Assembly: GCA_900542825.1 (NCBI GenBank)
Contig: UQOY01000001.1
Coordinates: 232,536-296,535, forward strand
Length of the DNA stretch: 64,000 nt
Source of the DNA: an uncultured Collinsella sp.
Lineage (GTDB): Bacteria > Actinomycetota > Coriobacteriia > Coriobacteriales > Coriobacteriaceae
Direction: 5' to 3'
Numbering within the stretch: position 1 is the stretch's first letter; each line of letters opens with the position of its first letter. The position numbers and the translations under genes are program-made. This document shows positions 2,107 through 39,013 of the stretch, piece by piece. Under the pieces are notes generated by a model. The model saw nothing but the letters and a program-made list of their open reading frames with translations, searched no databases and was not told where the DNA came from.

Positions 2107-3285
2107 TTAGTTGTTCTTGGTCAGGCGTTCGACGTCGTGGGCGATCATGTATTCCTCGTCGGTGGGGATGACCATGACCGTGACGGCGGAACCGGCAGCG
2201 CTGATGACCTGCGGGCCGTTGCCCACGGCCTCGCGGTTCTTGTTGTTGTCGATGCGCACGCCCAGCCACTCAAAGCAGTCGCAGAAGGCCTTACGAATCG
2301 ACCAGTCGTTCTCGCCGATGCCGGCAGTGAAGGTGATGGTATCCACGCCCGCCATAGAAGCGATCATGGAGCCGGCCTGCTGCATAGCCTTATAGGCGAA
2401 CATATCGAAGGCGAGCAGGCAGCGCTCATCTCCCTCGGAAGCGCGCGTACGGATGTCGCGGGCGTCGTTGGAGATACCCGAGATGGCAAGCAGACCAGAC
2501 TGCTTGTTCATCATGTCGTCGACTTCCTGGTAGCTGTAGCCGCCCTCGCGCTGCAGGTAACACACGGTAGCCGGGTCGATAGAGCCGCAGCGGGTTCCCA
2601 TCATCAGGCCGTCAAGCGGCGTGAGCCCCATCGTGGTGTCGCGGCACACGCCATCCTCGATGGCGGCAAGCGAGGCACCGTTGCCCAAATGGCACGAGAG
2701 CAGGCGGTGGCAGCGCGAGCCCAGGATCTCCTTGGCCATCATCCACTCGTAACGGTGGCTTGTACCGTGGGCGCCGTACTTGCGCACGTGGTACTTGTCG
2801 CACACGTCCTTGGGCAGGGCGTAGGTGTAGGCAACCTCAGGCATGGTCATGTGGAACGAGGTGTCGAAGACAGCCACGTTGGGCAGCTCCGGATACTTCT
2901 CGCGGCAATACTCTATCGCCGCAGCCTCGCCGTAGTTGTGCAGCGGGGCGAGCGGAGCCACCTCGAGAATCTTAGCCATGACCTCGTCGTCGACGACTGC
3001 GGAATCATCGAAGTGCCAGCCGCCCTGAACGATGCGATGCCCAATGCCATCGATCGTAAAGTCGGTCTTCTCGAGCTCCTCGAGCACGCGAGCGATAGCA
3101 GAGCGATGATCGGGGAAGGGAGCCTCCTCGGTCTGCTTGGCGCCACCGTTCTCGGAGTGGCCGAAGATGCCCATGTCCGATCCGATACGCTCGCAGTTGC
3201 CCTTGGCGAAAACCTCGCGGGTATCGGTATCCAAAAGCTGGTATTTAAGGCTTGAGCTGCCGGCATTGACAACAAGTACGTTCAT
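2107..3285 (-). CDS. ackA: acetate kinase
   Basis: 392 aa, MNVLVVNAGSSSLKYQLLD... acetokinase signature. AAGGAG RBS. The long + strand ORF 1840..3255 is antisense to it. Confidence 0.95.
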   Translation of the reverse strand: MNVLVVNAGSSSLKYQLLDTDTREVFAKGNCERIGSDMGIFGHSENGGAKQTEEAPFPDHRSAIARVLEELEKTDFTIDGIGHRIVQGGWHFDDSAVVDDEVMAKILEVAPLAPLHNYGEAAAIEYCREKYPELPNVAVFDTSFHMTMPEVAYTYALPKDVCDKYHVRKYGAHGTSHRYEWMMAKEILGSRCHRLLSCHLGNGASLAAIEDGVCRDTTMGLTPLDGLMMGTRCGSIDPATVCYLQREGGYSYQEVDDMMNKQSGLLAISGISNDARDIRTRASEGDERCLLAFDMFAYKAMQQAGSMIASMAGVDTITFTAGIGENDWSIRKAFCDCFEWLGVRIDNNKNREAVGNGPQVISAAGSAVTVMVIPTDEEYMIAHDVERLTKNN

Positions 3286-3445: not shown

Positions 3446-4624
3446 TTACTTGCCGTTGACGATGCGCTCGACGTCAGAAGCGATCATGAACTCCTCGTCC
3501 GTGGGGATGACGAAGATCTTGACCTTGGAATCCTTGGCAGACAGGCACCAAGCGCCGTCGCCACGCAGAGCGTTGCGGGCATGATCCATCTTGACGCCCA
3601 TAAAGGCCAGACGATCGGCCACGCCGGCGCGGACGGCCGGAGCGTGCTCGCCGATGCCGGCGGTAAAGACCAGGGTGTCCATGCCGCACATGGAGGTGGC
3701 CATCTCAGCGGCCTTTGCGGCAATCTTGTAGACGAACATATCGAAGGCGAGCTGGGCCTCGGGGTCGCCGGCAGCGGCGAGCTCCTCAACGTTGCGGCAG
3801 TCGTTGGTCTTGCCGCCTGTCACAGCCAAAAGGCCGGACTTCTTGTTCATCATCTCGTCGACCTCGTCGAAGGTGTAGCCGCCCTCGCGCTGCAGGTAGC
3901 AGACGGTGGCCGGGTCGATGGAGCCGCAGCGGGTGCCCATCATGACGCCGTCGAGCGGGGTGAGGCCCATGGTGGTGTCCATGCACTTGCCGTCCTCGAT
4001 GGCGCACAGGGAGGCACCGGAACCGATATGGCACACAACGACCTTGCGAGCCTCGCCGTTGGTCATCTCGGCGACCTTCTTGGAGATGTAGCGGTAGCTG
4101 GTGCCATGAGCGCCGTACTTACGGATGTGCAGCTTGTCGCAGACGTCCTTGGGCAGGGCGTAGGTCTTGGCGACCTCGGGCATGTTGAAGTGGAAAGCGG
4201 TGTCATAGACCGTGACGTTAGGCAGATCGGGATACTGCTCCAGGCAGAACTCGATAACGTTGGCCTCGGGGTTGTTGTGCAGCGGCGCCAGCGGGGCAAC
4301 CTCGCGGATCTTGGCGAGGACGTCCTCGTCGACGAGGGAGGAGTCGCCAAAGTACCAACCACCCTGAACGATACGGTGGCCGATGCCCTCGATCTTGACG
4401 CCGTTGGCCTCGAGGTCCTTCAGGACGACCTCGATGGCGACCTTGTGGTCGGGGAACTCGATGTTCTCGGTCACCTTCTTGGAACCGTTGGCAGCATGGG
4501 TGAAGGTACCGCCGGTAAAGCAGACGCGCTCGCAGGAGCCCTTTGCGGACACCTTGTGGGACTTGGTATCGATGACCTGATACTTAAGGGTCGAAGATCC
4601 TGCGTTGACGACCAGAACGTTCAT
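3446..4624 (-). CDS. acetate/propionate kinase paralog (second tandem copy)
   Basis: 392 aa, MNVLVVNAGSSTLKYQVIDTK... Collinear with the upstream ackA and clearly homologous, but divergent (paralog). GGGAG RBS. Confidence 0.9.
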   Translation of the reverse strand: MNVLVVNAGSSTLKYQVIDTKSHKVSAKGSCERVCFTGGTFTHAANGSKKVTENIEFPDHKVAIEVVLKDLEANGVKIEGIGHRIVQGGWYFGDSSLVDEDVLAKIREVAPLAPLHNNPEANVIEFCLEQYPDLPNVTVYDTAFHFNMPEVAKTYALPKDVCDKLHIRKYGAHGTSYRYISKKVAEMTNGEARKVVVCHIGSGASLCAIEDGKCMDTTMGLTPLDGVMMGTRCGSIDPATVCYLQREGGYTFDEVDEMMNKKSGLLAVTGGKTNDCRNVEELAAAGDPEAQLAFDMFVYKIAAKAAEMATSMCGMDTLVFTAGIGEHAPAVRAGVADRLAFMGVKMDHARNALRGDGAWCLSAKDSKVKIFVIPTDEEFMIASDVERIVNGK

Positions 4625-4744: not shown

Positions 4745-5905
4745 TCATGTCCTTTGGCTTGTAAGACGAAAGAGCGCGGGGATATACACCAACGAAGAAA
4801 TCCCGAGTGCAACAAGCAATATGAGTCGAATGCCCGCAACGCTGCTCAACACAGCGTTGAGCAGATAGAAAAGAACCGCACCCACCGCCACCATCTGGCT
4901 TTGAACCGAAATCAGTGAACAGCGCATCGAAGAATCGGCAGCATTTTGAAAAATTGAGTATTTAATCGGAGCAAATAACGAGTAAGCGACCGTCTGCAGC
5001 ACATAGAACACGGGCAGCAAATAAACCGGAGTAAAGGGAATCAAAAACAGAGCAGTCAGGGAAAGGCGCACGATGCCGCAAATACGCGCAAAGCGGCCCT
5101 TGTCGACACGAGCAATCACACTGGGCACAATAAGCCCCATAGAGGCCGAGGCAAGGAGCTGGACCGCAATGGCCACACCCGAAGCGACGGCATTCATTCC
5201 GCGACCCGCAAGCAGCAGTGAGAAAAAGTCTTCAAGGGCGACAAAAGCAAACGCCTGAGAACAGTCCATGATGAACGCTGACCGAAGAATGCCATTACCC
5301 GCAATAGCAGCACCGATCATCTTCGGGCTCATTCCATGCTCAGGTGTCACCGCAGTGCCCTCTCTTCTCACCTCAGGAATACAGACAACGACAACCAATG
5401 TCAGCACCATTGCGATGATATCGACCGAAAGCCCAATGAGGTATGCACCGACGGACGAAATGAAACCGCCCACACAAGCGGAGATGGCATAAGAGGCATA
5501 GAAAACAAATCGCTCAACGACATTAAGTCTTACGAGCTGGTCCTGAGAGACGCTGTCGATGTAAATCGCTTCTATGGATCCGCTCACACATGCAACGGCA
5601 AAACCTTTGAGAGCAAACGCGCCGATTAAAAGCAGAGGAGAACGGACGAGAAGCAGGGCGGCGTAGTATCCAAGCATTCCCACAACGCCAACGAGACCGC
5701 TGGTCTTTCGTCCAAACCTATCAGCAATATAGCCAGTGGGAACTTCAAGGATGAACTTACTCACTTGATATGCAATCATCATGCTAGAAATCGCTACCAT
5801 CGAAAGCCCGACGAACTCAAGGTAAACCGTCAGAAAATACAAAATGGTGCTGAAGTTCGACAGAAAAACGAACGTCATATAAAGCAAAACCGTACGGTTT
5901 TTCAT
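4745..5905 (-). CDS. MFS transporter
   Basis: Multi-helix hydrophobic protein with MFS-like motifs (GYIADRFGRK). Start chosen at MKNRTV, 6 nt after a GGAGGG RBS. Region GC is visibly lower than the flanks. Confidence 0.75.
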   Translation of the reverse strand: MKNRTVLLYMTFVFLSNFSTILYFLTVYLEFVGLSMVAISSMMIAYQVSKFILEVPTGYIADRFGRKTSGLVGVVGMLGYYAALLLVRSPLLLIGAFALKGFAVACVSGSIEAIYIDSVSQDQLVRLNVVERFVFYASYAISACVGGFISSVGAYLIGLSVDIIAMVLTLVVVVCIPEVRREGTAVTPEHGMSPKMIGAAIAGNGILRSAFIMDCSQAFAFVALEDFFSLLLAGRGMNAVASGVAIAVQLLASASMGLIVPSVIARVDKGRFARICGIVRLSLTALFLIPFTPVYLLPVFYVLQTVAYSLFAPIKYSIFQNAADSSMRCSLISVQSQMVAVGAVLFYLLNAVLSSVAGIRLILLVALGISSLVYIPALFRLTSQRT

Positions 5906-31737: not shown

Positions 31738-32925
31738 TTACTCCAAGCCAAGCAATCGTTTGTAGACATCGAGGCCTTTGAGCAGGATTTCCTCGTCAAA
31801 GAGCATAGTATCCGTATGCAGGGCACTCGTGGCATAGGCGGGGCAGCCCTCGGTGTCGCTCGGATTATCCCGACTGACAGGAACGCCCGTGCCCAGCAAG
31901 AAGAACACACCCGGCAGATGGCGCTGATAGAAGGCGAAGTCTTCGGCAATCAGCAGCGGCTCGTCCACGAGCTGCAACTCGGGCAGAGCAGGCGCGATTC
32001 GGGCAAACAACTCGGGGTCGTTGTCGACCGGCGGATAGCCCTCGGCAAAGTCGAGATCGTACGTGCAGCCCGTTGCAGCGCATGCCTCGTCAAGCACGCG
32101 GCGCACGCCCTCACGCGCACGGTCGAACATGTCGTCCGTAAACACACGCAGGCTGCCGGCAACATGGGCCTCCCCCGCCACCGCGTTGCAGACGGTACCG
32201 GCCTGCAGTAGGCCGAACTTACCAATGCAGGGTTCGTCGGCGCCCAACTCGTCCATCAATTCACGCTCGGCAACCAAAAACTTCGCTGCCGCCAACGCGG
32301 CATCGTGCGATTCGTTTACGGGAACGCCGTAGGTCTTGGCGATATGGATGCTTGTCCCGTGAATGTGCACGTGCGTCTCACTCGAGCGCGCTAGCAATGG
32401 ACCGGAGCAGCTCGCCAACGTGTTCGCAGGCAGGTCGGGCCATACGTGGAACCCGAAGATACGGTCCACCCCGTAGCGCTCAAACACCCCGCTCTCACAA
32501 ACTGTCTTGGCGCCACCGGTCGTCTCCTCGGCAGGCTGGAACACAAAGAGCACGTTGCGCTTGATGGCACCCGGCTGCTCACGAATCGTGCGATCGACAA
32601 AGGTTGCCGCCGCAAGTGCCATGGCCATGTGTCCATCGTGTCCGCAAGCGTGCATCTTGCCGGGATGGGTTGAGGCAAAGGCCGCACCCGTCGCCTCCGC
32701 GATGGGTAGCGCGTCCATATCGGCGCGAATCGCCGTGGCATGCACGGCACCAACGCCAGCATCGAAGAAAGCGCAGACACAGCTGGGGCACGGATGGGTC
32801 ACCTCGCAGGTGAGCGGCGCCAACACGCCCTCGATATAAGCGATGGTTTGAGGAAGATCGAAATCGAGCTCCGGAATGCGATGCAGGTCGCGACGATAGC
32901 GACGAAGTTCTTGGAGCTCGGTCAT
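31738..32925 (-). CDS. M20D-family amidohydrolase (N-acyl-amino-acid / hippurate hydrolase-like)
   Basis: MHACGHDGH and PAEE motifs. Start at MTELQELRRY, 6 nt after AAAGGA; the listed ORF extends further upstream. Confidence 0.85.
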   Translation of the reverse strand: MTELQELRRYRRDLHRIPELDFDLPQTIAYIEGVLAPLTCEVTHPCPSCVCAFFDAGVGAVHATAIRADMDALPIAEATGAAFASTHPGKMHACGHDGHMAMALAAATFVDRTIREQPGAIKRNVLFVFQPAEETTGGAKTVCESGVFERYGVDRIFGFHVWPDLPANTLASCSGPLLARSSETHVHIHGTSIHIAKTYGVPVNESHDAALAAAKFLVAERELMDELGADEPCIGKFGLLQAGTVCNAVAGEAHVAGSLRVFTDDMFDRAREGVRRVLDEACAATGCTYDLDFAEGYPPVDNDPELFARIAPALPELQLVDEPLLIAEDFAFYQRHLPGVFFLLGTGVPVSRDNPSDTEGCPAYATSALHTDTMLFDEEILLKGLDVYKRLLGLE

Positions 32926-33076
32926 AAAGGATCCTTTCATGGGGCATTTCCATTCACACAATATTGTGATGCAAAAATGTGATGCCCTTGTTTCTAGCAT
33001 ATCCCTGCATTTTTTAAACGTTATATACGAATACTCTTGTTTGGTAAAGTGCAACGTGGTAGGGTCGTTACCACTT

Positions 33077-33235
33077 GATAGAGGCGCGGGCACGAAGAAC
33101 CGCGGGCGAGCCGGCAGGCTTTGACCCCGTGGGGAGGCGAAACCCGCCGAACTGGGCTTTTCGGGCACGAACAACCTGGTGGGCCTGCGGGAAACACCCG
33201 CAGGACTGTCTGCAGCAATGCGGGAGCGCTATCCG
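33077..33235 (+). promoter_or_regulatory. lysine riboswitch (L-box)
   Basis: 5' GAUAGAGGCGCG, internal GGGGAGGCGAAACCCGCCGAA, and 3' GGACUGUC...GAGCGCUAUCC match the conserved L-box P1 and core elements. Sits directly upstream of lysA-dapA-dapB-dapH. Confidence 0.8.
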
Positions 33236-33304
33236 GACATTGGGTCCACGCTATGCGGATTCGATGCGCAGATGGCGCCGTCTGGATAGCGAGGTTTACG
33301 GGAC

Positions 33305-35614
33305 ATGGCATTGACCCCCAACGAGGCATATGCGGCCAAGCAGCCGTTTGTGGACAAGGAGACGCTCGAGCATATCGTCGAGCAGTTCCCCACGCCGTTT
33401 CATCTATATGACGAGGCGGGCATCCGCCGCAACATGCAAGAGGTGCGCGATGCCTTTGCATGGAACCCGGGCTTTAAGGAATACTTTGCCGTCAAGGCCA
33501 ATCCCAACCCGGCGCTCGTCTCCATTCTCAACGAATACGGCTGCGGCTGCGATTGCTCGAGCTATACCGAGCTCATGATCGCCCGCTCGCTGGGTATCAC
33601 GGGACACGACATCATGTTCTCGTCCAACGACACGCCAGCTGCCGACTTTGAGCTCGCCGACAAGCTGGGTGCCATCGTCAACTTTGACGACATCAGCCAC
33701 ATCGAGTTCTTTGAGCGCGTCGCGGGGCCCATCCCCAAGACGGTCAGCTGCCGCTTTAATCCGGGCGGCCTGTTCCAGCTCTCCAACGGCATCATGGATA
33801 ACCCCGGCGACTCCAAGTACGGCATGACCACCGAGCAACTCTTCGAGGCGTTCCGCATGCTCAAGGCCAAGGGCGCCGAGGACTTTGGCATCCACGCATT
33901 CCTTGCCAGCAACACCGTCACCAACGACTACTACCCCAAGCTCGCGCGCATCCTCTTTGAGCTTGCCGTGCGCCTGGAGCGCGAGACCGGCGCACATGTC
34001 GCCTTTATCAATCTGTCCGGCGGCGTCGGTATCCCCTACCTGCCCGAGCAGCAGGCCAACGACATTCACGCCATCGGCGAGGGAGTGCACGCGGCATACG
34101 ACGAGATCCTGGTTCCCGCCGACATGGGCGATGTGGCCATCTGCACCGAGATGGGCCGCTTTATGATGGGCCCCTACGGCTGCCTGGTCACCAAGGCCAT
34201 CCACGAGAAGCAGATCTACAAGGACTATATCGGTGTCGACGCAAGCGCGGTCGACCTGATTCGCCCTGCCATGTATGGCGCCTACCACCACATTACGGTG
34301 ATGGGCCAGCCGGGTGGCGCCGACAAGACCACAGCACCCGTTGCGGATACCTACGACATCACGGGCAACCTATGCGAGAACAACGACAAGTTCGCCATCG
34401 ATCGCGAACTGCCGCATATCGACATGGGCGACCTGCTTGTGATTCACGATACCGGCGCGCATGGCTACTCCATGGGCTACAACTACAATGGACGGCTGCG
34501 CTCCGCCGAGGTCCTGCTGCGTCCCGATGGCTCGGCCGAACTCATCCGCCGCGCCGAGCGCCCGGGCGATTATTTTGCCACGCTCGATGTGCTGCCGTGC
34601 GGCCGAGAGCTGCTGGCCAAGTCGCGCGCCGAAAGTGCCCGCCGTCGCGCCCAAGACGAGCGGCTGGCAGTCGCCGCCCAATGGAACAAACGCATCCAGA
34701 TCGCGGACGCGAAGGAGAAGAACATGGACATCCGCAATCTTGAAGGCTCGATCGTCGCCCTTGTTACGCCGTTTAAAAAGGACGGCAGCGTCGACTTTGA
34801 CGCGCTCGAGCGCCTTATCGATTTCCACCTGCAAAACGGCACCGACGCCATCCTCACCCTGGGCACCACCGGCGAGAGCGCCACGATGACCGATGACGAG
34901 GACAACTCCGTTGTCGCCGCCGTGGTCAAGCAAGTTGCAGGCCGCGTCCCCGTCATTGCCGGCTCGGGCTCCAACTCCACGCAAACCATGCTCACCAAGT
35001 CGCTCACCTACCAGGGCTTGGGAGCCGACGGTCTGCTGCTCATTACCCCCTACTACAACAAGGCCAATGAAGAGGGCATCTATCAGCACTTTAAGACCGT
35101 CGCCGATGCCGTGGACATCCCCTGCATCCTGTACAACATCCCCGGCCGCTGCGGCTGCGGCATCAGCGAGCGCAACGTAGAACGCTTGGCTGCGCACCCC
35201 AACATCATGGGTATTAAGGAAGCCTCGGGCAACGTCGCCTACGCGGCCAAGATCGCCCACCTGCTGTCCGACGACTTCCGTATGTACTCGGGCGAAGACG
35301 CACTTACCGTACCGCTCATGAGCCTGGGCGCTTCGGGCACCATCAGCGTGTGGGCCGATGTTCAGCCGCAGCTCGTGCACGACATGTGTCGAGCCTATCT
35401 GGACGGTGACGTGGCACGCGCCCGCGATATCCAGATTGCCGGCCAGCCGCTCATCAATGCACTCTTTAGCGAGGTCAACCCCATCCCCGTCAAGGAGGCG
35501 CTCGCCCAGATGGGTATGATCGAAGCAAATTACCGCATGCCGCTGTGCCCCATGGCAGACGTCACGCGCGCTACACTTACCGATGCTCTGAAGGGAGCTG
35601 GTCTGCTTGATTAA
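33305..35614 (+). CDS. lysA-dapA: in-frame fusion: diaminopimelate decarboxylase (LysA) + 4-hydroxy-tetrahydrodipicolinate synthase (DapA)
   Basis: 769-aa ORF. Residues 1-~455 are a PLP-dependent ornithine/DAP decarboxylase fold; after a ~40-aa basic linker comes a complete DapA (MDIRNLEGSIVALVTPF...). No stop codon found on reading codons 34562-34740. Confidence 0.8.
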   Translation: MALTPNEAYAAKQPFVDKETLEHIVEQFPTPFHLYDEAGIRRNMQEVRDAFAWNPGFKEYFAVKANPNPALVSILNEYGCGCDCSSYTELMIARSLGITGHDIMFSSNDTPAADFELADKLGAIVNFDDISHIEFFERVAGPIPKTVSCRFNPGGLFQLSNGIMDNPGDSKYGMTTEQLFEAFRMLKAKGAEDFGIHAFLASNTVTNDYYPKLARILFELAVRLERETGAHVAFINLSGGVGIPYLPEQQANDIHAIGEGVHAAYDEILVPADMGDVAICTEMGRFMMGPYGCLVTKAIHEKQIYKDYIGVDASAVDLIRPAMYGAYHHITVMGQPGGADKTTAPVADTYDITGNLCENNDKFAIDRELPHIDMGDLLVIHDTGAHGYSMGYNYNGRLRSAEVLLRPDGSAELIRRAERPGDYFATLDVLPCGRELLAKSRAESARRRAQDERLAVAAQWNKRIQIADAKEKNMDIRNLEGSIVALVTPFKKDGSVDFDALERLIDFHLQNGTDAILTLGTTGESATMTDDEDNSVVAAVVKQVAGRVPVIAGSGSNSTQTMLTKSLTYQGLGADGLLLITPYYNKANEEGIYQHFKTVADAVDIPCILYNIPGRCGCGISERNVERLAAHPNIMGIKEASGNVAYAAKIAHLLSDDFRMYSGEDALTVPLMSLGASGTISVWADVQPQLVHDMCRAYLDGDVARARDIQIAGQPLINALFSEVNPIPVKEALAQMGMIEANYRMPLCPMADVTRATLTDALKGAGLLD
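34724..35614 (+). CDS. dapA: DapA portion; possible independent internal translation start
   Basis: ATG at 34724 is preceded by GAAGGAG 7 nt upstream, embedded in the fusion linker coding sequence. The 296-aa product is a full-length DapA. Confidence 0.45.
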   Translation: MDIRNLEGSIVALVTPFKKDGSVDFDALERLIDFHLQNGTDAILTLGTTGESATMTDDEDNSVVAAVVKQVAGRVPVIAGSGSNSTQTMLTKSLTYQGLGADGLLLITPYYNKANEEGIYQHFKTVADAVDIPCILYNIPGRCGCGISERNVERLAAHPNIMGIKEASGNVAYAAKIAHLLSDDFRMYSGEDALTVPLMSLGASGTISVWADVQPQLVHDMCRAYLDGDVARARDIQIAGQPLINALFSEVNPIPVKEALAQMGMIEANYRMPLCPMADVTRATLTDALKGAGLLD

Positions 35615-36347
35615 GACCGTCATTATGGGAACGGGCCGCATGGGCTCGCTCATCCGCACCACCGCCGAGGGCGTTGTCGACGCCGCCGGACAACCTGTTT
35701 TCAATATCGTGGCCCAGATCGGCTTTGACTTGTCCGAGCTCGAGAACGCCCCGGCAGCCGACGTCATCATCGACTTCTCGAACGTCGTGACCTTCGATGC
35801 CGTCGTCGCCTATGTCGAGCGCACGGGCGCAGCGTTAGTCTCGGGAACCACGGGCTACACACCAGAGCAGATGGATCGCCTGCGCGAGCTGGGTCAGAAC
35901 GCCCGCGTCATGCACTCCGGCAATTATTCCATCGGTATCGCAGCCCTGCGTCATCTGGTAGCACAGGCAACACGCGAGCTGCCCGGCTTTGACTGCGAAA
36001 TCGTCGAGACGCACCATAACCAAAAGGTCGACGCCCCCAGCGGCACTGCCAAGTTGTTGCTCGACGCCGTCGTCGAAGCCGAGCCCGAGGCAGGTTACCA
36101 CCCCGTCTATGGCCGCGAGGGCATGTGCGGTGCACGCGACCCCAAGGAGATCGGCATGCACTCGCTGCGCGGTGGCACTGTCGCCGGCGTGCACGAAGTG
36201 AGTTTCTTTGGCCAGGACGAGGAGGTCACGCTCACGCACCGCGCCACGAGCCGTCAGATCTTTGTCAACGGTGCCCTGGCAGCCGCGCAGAAGCTCGTCA
36301 CCCACGAGCCTGGCTTCTATACGTTCGACCAGATCATGTTTGCCTAA
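35607..36347 (+). CDS. dapB: 4-hydroxy-tetrahydrodipicolinate reductase
   Basis: 246 aa, DapB motifs (EIVETHHNQKVDAPSGTA). Overlaps the dapA stop by 8 nt (ATGATTAA). Confidence 0.9.
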   Translation: MIKTVIMGTGRMGSLIRTTAEGVVDAAGQPVFNIVAQIGFDLSELENAPAADVIIDFSNVVTFDAVVAYVERTGAALVSGTTGYTPEQMDRLRELGQNARVMHSGNYSIGIAALRHLVAQATRELPGFDCEIVETHHNQKVDAPSGTAKLLLDAVVEAEPEAGYHPVYGREGMCGARDPKEIGMHSLRGGTVAGVHEVSFFGQDEEVTLTHRATSRQIFVNGALAAAQKLVTHEPGFYTFDQIMFA

Positions 36348-36386: not shown

Positions 36387-37106
36387 ATGAGCAATGCAGC
36401 CGAAATGGATGCACAGGAGATCATCAACTACATCGCCACCGCGCCCAAGAAAACGCCCGTCAAACTGTACGTGCGCGAGAAGCCGGGCATGAAGGTCCAG
36501 TGGGGCAATGCACACGTCTACGGCGGTCGTCGTGGCAAGACCGTCTTTGGTGACTGGGATGAGCTCAAGGCAATCCTCGACGCCAACGCCGGCTCCATCG
36601 ACTACTACGACGTAGAGAACGACTGCCGCAACTCCGCCGTGCCCATGCTCGACCTCAAGGGCATCAACGCCCGCATCGAGCCGGGCGCTATCATCCGCGA
36701 CCGCGTCGAGATTGGCGACCGTGCCGTCATCATGATGGGCGCCATCATCAACATCGGCTCCGTCATTGGCGAGGGTTCCATGATCGATATGGGCGCCGTG
36801 CTGGGCGGCCGCGCCACCGTGGGTAAGAACTGCCACATCGGCGCCGGCACCGTGCTGGCAGGCGTCGTGGAGCCCGCCAGCGCCACGCCCGTCATCATCG
36901 AGGACGATGTCATGATCGGCGCCAATGCCGTGGTCCTGGAGGGCGTGCACGTGGGCAAGGGTGCTGTCGTTGCCGCCGGCGCCGTGTGCGTCGAGGACGT
37001 CCCCGCCGGTGCCGTCGTGGCCGGTGTCCCCGCCCGCGTCATCAAGATGCGCGACGAGAAGACCGACAGCAAGACTGGCCTCGAAGAGGGCTTACGCCAG
37101 CTTTAA
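36387..37106 (+). CDS. dapH: 2,3,4,5-tetrahydropyridine-2,6-dicarboxylate N-acetyltransferase
   Basis: Left-handed beta-helix hexapeptide repeats with DapH-like N-terminus. Confidence 0.85.
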
Positions 37107-37111
37107 TAGTT

Positions 37112-37137
37112 ACGCGGTTTTGACAAACCGCGTTTTC
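37112..37137 (+). terminator. intrinsic terminator of lysine operon
   Basis: acgcggttt-tgac-aaaccgcgt followed by tttctct. Confidence 0.7.
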
Positions 37138-37224
37138 TCTGACGCATGCTCAACCTGCGGCGCAATGTCAGCAACCAAGCCGAAAACAAAAAAGGCCGAA
37201 GCACCATCGGGGCTTCGACCTTCA

Positions 37225-37930: not shown

Positions 37931-37980
37931 AAATAATCTGGATTATATTTCAAAGTATACTTCAAAATATAATCCAGACT
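37931..37980. promoter_or_regulatory. ~46-bp imperfect palindrome in toxin-antitoxin promoter (candidate autoregulatory operator)
   Basis: aatctggattatattt-caaagtatacttc-aaaatataatccagact, centred on GTATAC; AT-rich. Confidence 0.5.
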
Positions 37981-37999: not shown

Positions 38000-39013
38000 C
38001 TATCGATTCTCGATGCTGCCGATATTCTTGAGCTCGATGGAGATGAGGCCGTTGGGCTCGTTGACGAACTCAATGTACTCGGAGTTCGAACCCATCTCGG
38101 CCGGGAAGCTGATTTCGATGCCCGTGTCGGTACGGATCTTGTGATTGCGCACAGCAGCGCGCTCGACCTGCTTGCGCTCCACGGGAACGCGCTCGGGAAC
38201 CTTCTCCTCGGTCAGCGCCGCACGCACGCTTTCCTTGATGACCGGCTCGTCCTCAAAGACCTCATCGACGATATCCCAAGGCGGCAGCTCCTCGTCATCC
38301 TCAACCTTCTCGGCAACGGCAGCCTTAACCTTAGCGAGCGCTACGGCCGTATTGGCACCGTGCTCCTCGGCGACTTCCTCGACCACACGCGTCACGGTGT
38401 CGATGACCTCCTTGCCCGACACGCCCGTGTCGCACTGCAGCAGGCCATCAGGAATAAGCATACGGTCCTCGCCGGCAATCTTGCGTTTCTTGTCCACGTA
38501 GCCGATCTCCATGGTGCTCGCGCGCACGATGGCATAGCTTGGCACCTTTTGCGAGGGGTTTGGCAGAATAGCGTAGTGGCGCGCGATGTCATTGCGCACC
38601 TCCCCCTCCTCGCGGCCCACTTCGTGCATGAAAGCCTGCTTGGAGCCCAGCAGCATCACGGCAAACCAGCGGGCATCCTCATCGTCGTCAAAATCAGCCA
38701 CGAGCACGTCGGTGGACTCGGCTTTCTCAGCCTTGGTGAGCTCGGAGGAGATAAACTCCGCAATCTGCTGCGACAGGTCCACGAACTCGCGCTCGCCAAA
38801 GAAATAACCCTTGAGCTCGCCGCCAAACGCAGAGTTCTCGGCAAACGTGGCGCGTTTATTGTCGGTCGAGGTACGTGCGCGGCGCAGATGCGTGGTCACG
38901 AAGTTGCGCACGGTACGGCTTTCGATATCCAACTCGCGCTGGCTCATAACGTTGACGGCAGAGTCAAAGTCCAGGATATGCAGAATCGCGTGATTGATTT
39001 TCATATACGGCAT
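38000..39013 (-). CDS. nucleoid-associated protein (NdpA/YejK, NA37 family)
   Basis: MKINHAILHILDF N-terminus characteristic of the 37-kDa nucleoid-associated protein family. Confidence 0.75.
   Translation of the reverse strand: MPYMKINHAILHILDFDSAVNVMSQRELDIESRTVRNFVTTHLRRARTSTDNKRATFAENSAFGGELKGYFFGEREFVDLSQQIAEFISSELTKAEKAESTDVLVADFDDDEDARWFAVMLLGSKQAFMHEVGREEGEVRNDIARHYAILPNPSQKVPSYAIVRASTMEIGYVDKKRKIAGEDRMLIPDGLLQCDTGVSGKEVIDTVTRVVEEVAEEHGANTAVALAKVKAAVAEKVEDDEELPPWDIVDEVFEDEPVIKESVRAALTEEKVPERVPVERKQVERAAVRNHKIRTDTGIEISFPAEMGSNSEYIEFVNEPNGLISIELKNIGSIENR

Follow-up and report, generated by a model that had tools for sequence, protein, structure and literature searches.

Lysine riboswitches have been catalogued in the order Coriobacteriales upstream of lysA-dapA-dapB(-dapD), as in Atopobium parvulum and Slackia heliotrinireducens (PMC5584792, Table 1), and horizontal transfer of these riboswitches between Firmicutes and Actinobacteria has been discussed in the same work. 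No analysis of the expression platforms of the Coriobacteriales riboswitches was given there (PMC5584792). An element of the same RNA family, in the same bacterial order and ahead of the same gene order, is found in a 64-kb stretch of DNA from an uncultured Collinsella sp. (hereafter, the window). Unlike the catalogued cases, it belongs to a Collinsella host, lysA is fused with dapA, and the acyltransferase of the operon fits TIGR03532, the model for DapH (acetyl). It represents the catalogued Coriobacteriales riboswitches in Collinsella and is already known in kind; a literature search on riboswitches in Collinsella returned no title or abstract indicating a description of this particular element.

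The lysC L-box of Bacillus subtilis shares with the Collinsella element the aptamer family, the five-helix junction and the conserved cores, and in both leaders P1 competes against an alternative helix that takes up the 3' P1 strand. The B. subtilis lysC leader carries a terminator hairpin with a U-tract, whereas a terminator scan found none in the Collinsella leader; a relative from the Eggerthellaceae (L073) has one. Compared with lysC of Escherichia coli, the element differs in regulated gene (lysA-dapA as against lysC) and in phylum, the two platforms have no sequence relationship, and occlusion of the Shine-Dalgarno sequence (SD) in the bound state is weakly predicted here. The value of the present locus lies mainly in annotation, in that the putative promoter, leader, operon limits and terminator are fixed, and in indicating that in Collinsella, an abundant genus of the gut, the acetylase (DapH) branch of lysine synthesis is probably controlled directly by a lysine-sensing RNA. 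What is known on lysine riboswitches is not changed by it.

A scan of the window against Rfam 15 at gathering thresholds gave a single match across the 64 kb, to RF00168 at 33071-33239 on the + strand (74.4 bits, E 1.5e-17), with a score more than twice the gathering score of 30. The alignment is full length and untruncated, spanning model positions 1-182 of 182. A preliminary description of this DNA had proposed an L-box from short motifs and had suggested a covariance-model search and a check that helices P2-P5 could form; the score above and the covariation of P1-P5 described below bear out the L-box identity. The motifs that it quoted were all recovered, where it had placed them, by direct reading of the sequence:

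33077-33088, + strand: quoted motif GATAGAGGCGCG
33131-33151, + strand: quoted motif GGGGAGGCGAAACCCGCCGAA
33203-33210, + strand: quoted motif GGACTGTC
33224-33234, + strand: quoted motif GAGCGCTATCC

In the RF00168 alignment the window also matches the junction-core consensus (AGAGG-GC, GCCGAA, ACUGUC, GGAG-GCUA), and the columns of these cores are invariant in all 14 aligned Coriobacteriia aptamers. Folding of the 14-sequence alignment with RNAalifold, run without the Rfam model, independently recovered P1-P5 with 47 pairs in total, 16 of which show a compensatory change (at least one sequence with both sides altered and pairing kept). Thus the helices can be formed, and they covary among the relatives. 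In the window they fall as follows:

33077-33081 / 33229-33233, + strand: P1
33086-33090 / 33143-33147, 33100-33106 / 33126-33132 and 33110-33112 / 33117-33119, + strand: the three segments of P2
33151-33155 / 33176-33180 and 33160-33163 / 33168-33171, + strand: the two segments of P3
33182-33191 / 33197-33207, + strand: P4
33209-33214 / 33219-33224, + strand: P5

Loops L2 (GAGCCGGCAGGC) and L3 (GGGCAC) are nearly invariant in the same alignment, and hence show no covariation between them. Judged by model score and covariation, the element at 33071-33239 is a lysine riboswitch (L-box, RF00168) aptamer and an ordinary member of its family. We infer that it binds lysine and that regulation runs in the direction of a lysine-dependent OFF switch.

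The riboswitch lies on the same strand as, and directly 5' of, the lysine biosynthesis genes lysA-dapA, dapB and dapH:

33305-35614, + strand: fused lysA-dapA open reading frame, 769 aa (Pfam PF02784, PF00278 and PF00701; TIGRFAM matches)
35607-36347, + strand: dapB, 4-hydroxy-tetrahydrodipicolinate reductase (TIGR00036, 179 bits)
36387-37106, + strand: dapH, tetrahydrodipicolinate N-acetyltransferase (TIGR03532, 346 bits)
37112-37141, + strand: intrinsic-terminator-like hairpin (37112-37133) with the U-rich tail UUUCUCUG (37134-37141), from the terminator scan

Between the last nucleotide of P1 (33233) and the ATG of lysA-dapA (33305) there are 71 nt, so that the earlier placement of the element about 70 nt upstream of the operon was right. 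The gene identities given at the time (lysA, dapA, dapB and dapH) likewise stand, but lysA and dapA are a single fused open reading frame and not two genes. In the fusion, diaminopimelate decarboxylase occupies residues ~15-424 (PF02784, PF00278; TIGR01048, for which this fused frame scores 269.5 bits, below the cut-off of 297.9) and 4-hydroxy-tetrahydrodipicolinate synthase occupies residues ~479-763 (PF00701; TIGR00674, 333 bits over 481-763), with a linker of ~50 aa (residues ~430-478) in between. LysA and DapA catalyse the last and the first committed steps of lysine synthesis. The dapB gene overlaps the 3' end of lysA-dapA by 8 nt, and the terminator-like hairpin, which begins 6 nt past the dapH stop codon, marks the end of the regulated operon.

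An M20-family amidohydrolase gene (31738-32925, - strand; TIGR01891, 218 bits) lies upstream and is divergently oriented; its product is plausibly the N-acetyl-diaminopimelate deacetylase that completes the DapH branch. The gene is on the opposite strand and is therefore outside riboswitch control. The intergenic region is common to it and the riboswitch promoter, and the same neighbour is found in locus L082.

A putative promoter for the leader was recognized from conservation:

33037-33065, + strand: putative promoter (-35 TTGTTT, 17-nt spacer, extended -10 TGgTAGGGT)
33037-33042, + strand: -35 hexamer TTGTTT
33060-33065, + strand: -10 hexamer TAGGGT

In all 12 lineages compared, an extended -10 (TGnTAnnnT) ends 9-11 nt 5' of the 5' strand of P1, the distance in the window being 11 nt, and a -35 hexamer starting with TTG is present at 17-18 nt spacing in nine of the 12. 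Neither hexamer contains a variable position among 68 sequences of the C. aerofaciens group. A generic sigma-70 scan did not call this putative promoter. From its position, transcription would probably start at ~33071-33073, a few nucleotides before P1.

Searches with LysA as the query returned loci of 97-98% identity in dozens of genomes of the Collinsella aerofaciens group, to which the window is assigned, and more distant loci (78-84% identity) from other Collinsella, Eggerthellaceae and Atopobiaceae. In all Coriobacteriia loci tested, RF00168 matched immediately 5' of lysA, at 51-81 bits: 56-81 bits in L001, L008, L016, L020, L026, L054, L058, L063, L064, L067, L068, L070, L072, L073 and L074, 69 bits in L081, 51 in L082, 72 in L089 and 65.5 in L093. 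No riboswitch was detected by the RF00168 scan in the Lachnospiraceae-type loci L076-L080, whose LysA is ~70% identical. These Lachnospiraceae-type loci differ from Coriobacteriia in operon structure: an 83-nt tRNA gene lies near the lysA stop codon (about 4360-4470) in L076, L077 and L079, and ~1.4 kb further on, on the minus strand (5655-5737), in L080, and none of the four has dapA. A metagenome pattern scan for window-type lineages, that is, lineages whose expression platform resembles that of the window, returned 16 stretches, of which L089 and L093 alone carry the riboswitch. The other 14 were rejected as chance matches, many of them on apparently non-gut JGI (Ga…) metagenome contigs.

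The expression platforms downstream of these aptamers are of several kinds. The window-type platform, with a spacer of ~60-70 nt, is found in five lineages (the C. aerofaciens group, L081, L089, L082, which equals L063, and L093). In four relatives the platform is compact: the SD (AAGGAG or AAGGAA) lies 1-7 nt past the 3' strand of P1, and the ATG follows 5-10 nt beyond the SD hexamer. These compact platforms lie at:

around 2985-3007: L064, L070 and L074
around 955-970: L072

An SD 1-7 nt after P1 leaves no room for a terminator in these four relatives and therefore points to control at the ribosome-binding site, although folding of the compact platforms revealed no switching mechanism and SD accessibility in their ensembles shows no switch. 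The leader of L073 has a terminator with a 13-bp hairpin and a U-tract, 39 nt past the aptamer (2889-2920). Spacers in L067 and L068 are longer (~70-85 nt), and the terminator scan found no + strand terminator in either leader. Going by these alignments, the aptamer is constant and the expression platform has been rebuilt repeatedly within Coriobacteriia, and the comparison shows how fast such rebuilding (terminator-type, compact SD-adjacent, long-spacer) proceeds within one class.

The LysA-DapA fusion is present in the C. aerofaciens group, L081 and L082, while lysA and dapA are separate, adjacent genes in other Coriobacteriia. In L064, dapA is in frame with lysA, just past the lysA stop codon. 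Conservation of the fusion extends to many contigs, at 76-98% identity. Eight contigs with fusion proteins of 76-87% identity were fetched for leaders of intermediate divergence, and six of the eight are low in GC and lack the riboswitch. These low-GC contigs (L083-L088) encode the fusion among different neighbouring genes, and the RF00168 scan detected no lysine riboswitch upstream of it. In two of them, L085 (1501-3795) and L088 (1501-3765), the DapA domain is 96-98% identical to that of the window and the LysA domain 73-79%. Such a mismatch between domains suggests, as far as identity values go, either lateral transfer or recombination (mosaic ancestry) or a chimeric metagenome assembly. 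No database name for the LysA-DapA fusion was found, and no paper on it came up in the literature search.

The preliminary description saw no obvious terminator in the leader of the window, and this is confirmed by the terminator scan, which gave no terminator-like site on either strand between 32800 and 33500. This negative result is meaningful because the same scan detects terminators both in the leader of L073 and after dapH. In a search of 33060-33330 for inverted repeats, two mutually exclusive helices, I1 and I2, were found to have a common downstream arm; the parts of the platform are:

33227-33238, + strand: anti-P1 upstream arm CGCUAUCCGGAC, made up of the 3' P1 strand and the five following nucleotides (inverted repeat I1)
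33246-33259, + strand: candidate SD-sequestor upstream arm CCACGCUAUGCGGA, which mimics the 3' P1 strand (inverted repeat I2)
33280-33291, + strand: switching segment GUCUGGAUAGCG, a mimic of the 5' P1 strand (I1/I2 and conservation)
33291-33295, + strand: Shine-Dalgarno sequence GAGGU, 9 nt before the ATG (read from sequence)

I1 joins 33227-33238 to 33280-33291 over 12 nt with 92% complementarity, forms in unconstrained folds of the window and ends at the first SD nucleotide. I2 joins 33246-33259 to UCUGGAUAGCGAGG (33281-33294) over 14 nt with 79% complementarity and covers the SD guanines; once P1 is enforced, the fold contains I2 together with its CC:GG pairs across the SD. I2 is not conserved in other lineages. 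The length of I1 was reached in only three of 2000 shuffles of the window platform.

In all five window-type lineages, a segment of 10-12 nt that can pair with the 3' P1 strand and its flank reaches the SD or stops 1 nt short of it, and complementarity of this extent was matched in 1-27 of 2000 shuffles per platform. A purine-rich equivalent of the SD adjoins the anti-P1 arm in each of the five, and the motif GGAUAGYRAGG is kept in all, while most of the spacer between the anti-P1 arms cannot be aligned from one lineage to the next. Among the 68 sequences of the C. aerofaciens group, 33276-33296 contains no variable site and the 37 nt of 33239-33275 contain nine, with three in the loop 33270-33274 and three in the linker 33239-33243; those in I2 comprise two C-to-U changes that keep G·U pairs and one position with two pair-breaking changes. 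Conservation and complementarity together give good evidence that the SD-adjacent arm would act as a switching sequence, competing with the 5' strand of P1 for its 3' strand.

Effects on the SD itself were assessed by comparing a "holo-like" ensemble, in which the platform was folded alone, with an "apo-like" ensemble, in which the 3' P1 strand was available. In three lineages (L081, L089 and L082) the SD or AUG is predicted to be unpaired with a probability of ~0.9 in the apo-like fold and of 0.1-0.3 in the holo-like one, the occlusion in L081 and L089 proceeding via a local helix of another kind (AUGG.GCU.UCU with AGG.AGU.CCAU). For the window and L093, both ensembles give essentially the same SD accessibility. 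The CC:GG extension over the SD of the window lies 2.1 kcal/mol above the best fold of the platform, and a small GGAC/GUCC hairpin forms in competition with it. Guanine 33291, the first of the SD, is paired in both conformers, and the AGG adjoins a helix in each, so that the two are predicted to differ little in structure. Blocking of the ribosome by the lysine-bound conformer is therefore inferred, and not clearly predicted by these folds, for the window. Two proposed pairings were rejected. A sequestor, CCACGC:GYRAGG, derived from a motif common to four window-type lineages, does not hold as a conserved structure: it is near-optimal only in the window (+2.1 kcal/mol) and lies 5.8-12.8 kcal/mol above the optimum in the other lineages. 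Extension of P1 through pairing of a conserved 5' ACUY with the SD was, by eye, not consistently possible across lineages.

Taken with the platform data, translational control is the best-supported mechanism, and it is reasonably probable that the element is a lysine-dependent OFF switch acting mainly on translation initiation, through a P1/anti-P1 competition coupled to the SD. With no lysine, the 3' P1 strand and its flank (33227-33238) would pair with the SD-abutting segment 33280-33291, leaving P1 open and both the AGG of the SD and the AUG single-stranded. Binding of lysine to the five-helix aptamer would lock P1 (33077-33081 / 33229-33233), and the freed segment 33280-33291 would then pair with the mimic of the P1 3' strand at 33246-33259, in a hairpin that could extend over the SD guanines 33293-33294 and so lower ribosome loading on lysA-dapA. 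Translational control had earlier been considered likelier than termination, with sequestration of the ribosome-binding site as the means. The preference over termination is supported by the missing terminator and the conserved anti-P1 arm at the SD, but for the window the folds give no clear prediction of SD occlusion with lysine bound.

This last point bears on a rather unlikely alternative, in which the same aptamer acts mainly through factor-dependent premature termination or mRNA decay, with SD occlusion being only a trigger or a minor contribution; examples would be Rho termination inside the long lysA-dapA reading frame once translation falls, or RNase cleavage of the lysine-bound leader. 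Given the small change in SD exposure predicted for the window, an amplifying step of this kind is plausible, and there is precedent for it in the E. coli lysC riboswitch, where cleavage by RNase E accompanies regulation at the ribosome-binding site (as summarised in PMC5584792). Similarly, an FMN riboswitch of the actinobacterium Corynebacterium glutamicum is reported to be Rho- and RNase-dependent (PMC4288175). However, the switching arm directly abuts the SD in five lineages, which suggests that the ribosome-binding site is what the switch primarily acts on, and factor-dependent control is compatible with the translational model and does not exclude it. Classical attenuation, with the lysine-bound hairpin 33246-33294 and the UUU at 33295-33297 serving as a weak, non-canonical terminator and the anti-P1 helix as antiterminator, is very unlikely. 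The P1-enforced hairpin does end at G33294, directly followed by UUUAC, L093 has UUUU at the equivalent place, and the Eggerthellaceae relative L073 uses a terminator-type platform. Against this, the leader scan finds no terminator, although canonical ones are found in this genome and in L073; just three U residues follow the hairpin; L081, L089 and L082 lack a U-tract there; and the terminated transcript would end at or inside the start codon. In addition, the apo helix also ends 1-3 nt before these U residues, so that the two states would not differ.

It is extremely unlikely that the aptamer no longer regulates and is a degenerate or non-functional relic, for instance one brought in with a laterally acquired operon. 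Regulation does appear dispensable in some genomes, as the low-GC fusion operons (L083-L088) and the Lachnospiraceae lysA loci (L076-L080) lack the riboswitch, but the window element scores 74 bits with all junction cores intact, the aptamer is kept with compensatory changes across Coriobacteriia, and purifying selection on promoter, P1 strands and switching arm is clearly seen among the 68 genomes. A quite unlikely joint reading of the data is that an unusually fast-evolving "double-mimic" strand-swap platform controls a bifunctional LysA-DapA enzyme. Here, a copy of the P1 5' strand (GGAUAGCG) may be fused to the SD and a copy of the P1 3' strand (CGCUAU) may lie upstream of it, such that lysine may decide only to which of two helices of equal length the SD-proximal arm belongs, and repression may then depend on a very slight change in structure or on a cofactor (Rho, RNase). 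If true, one RNA sensor and one polypeptide would set the flux through the lysine pathway; no description of a double-mimic switch combined with LysA-DapA was found in the literature searched.

Beyond the operon, an AT-rich, near-perfect palindrome at 37935-37980, with a 20-bp stem (GTCTGGATTATATTTTGAAGTATACTTTGAAATATAATCCAGAT) that is followed by a T-run on the minus strand, sits downstream of a gene for an NA37 nucleoid-associated protein (38000-39013, - strand), and is probably the terminator of that gene.
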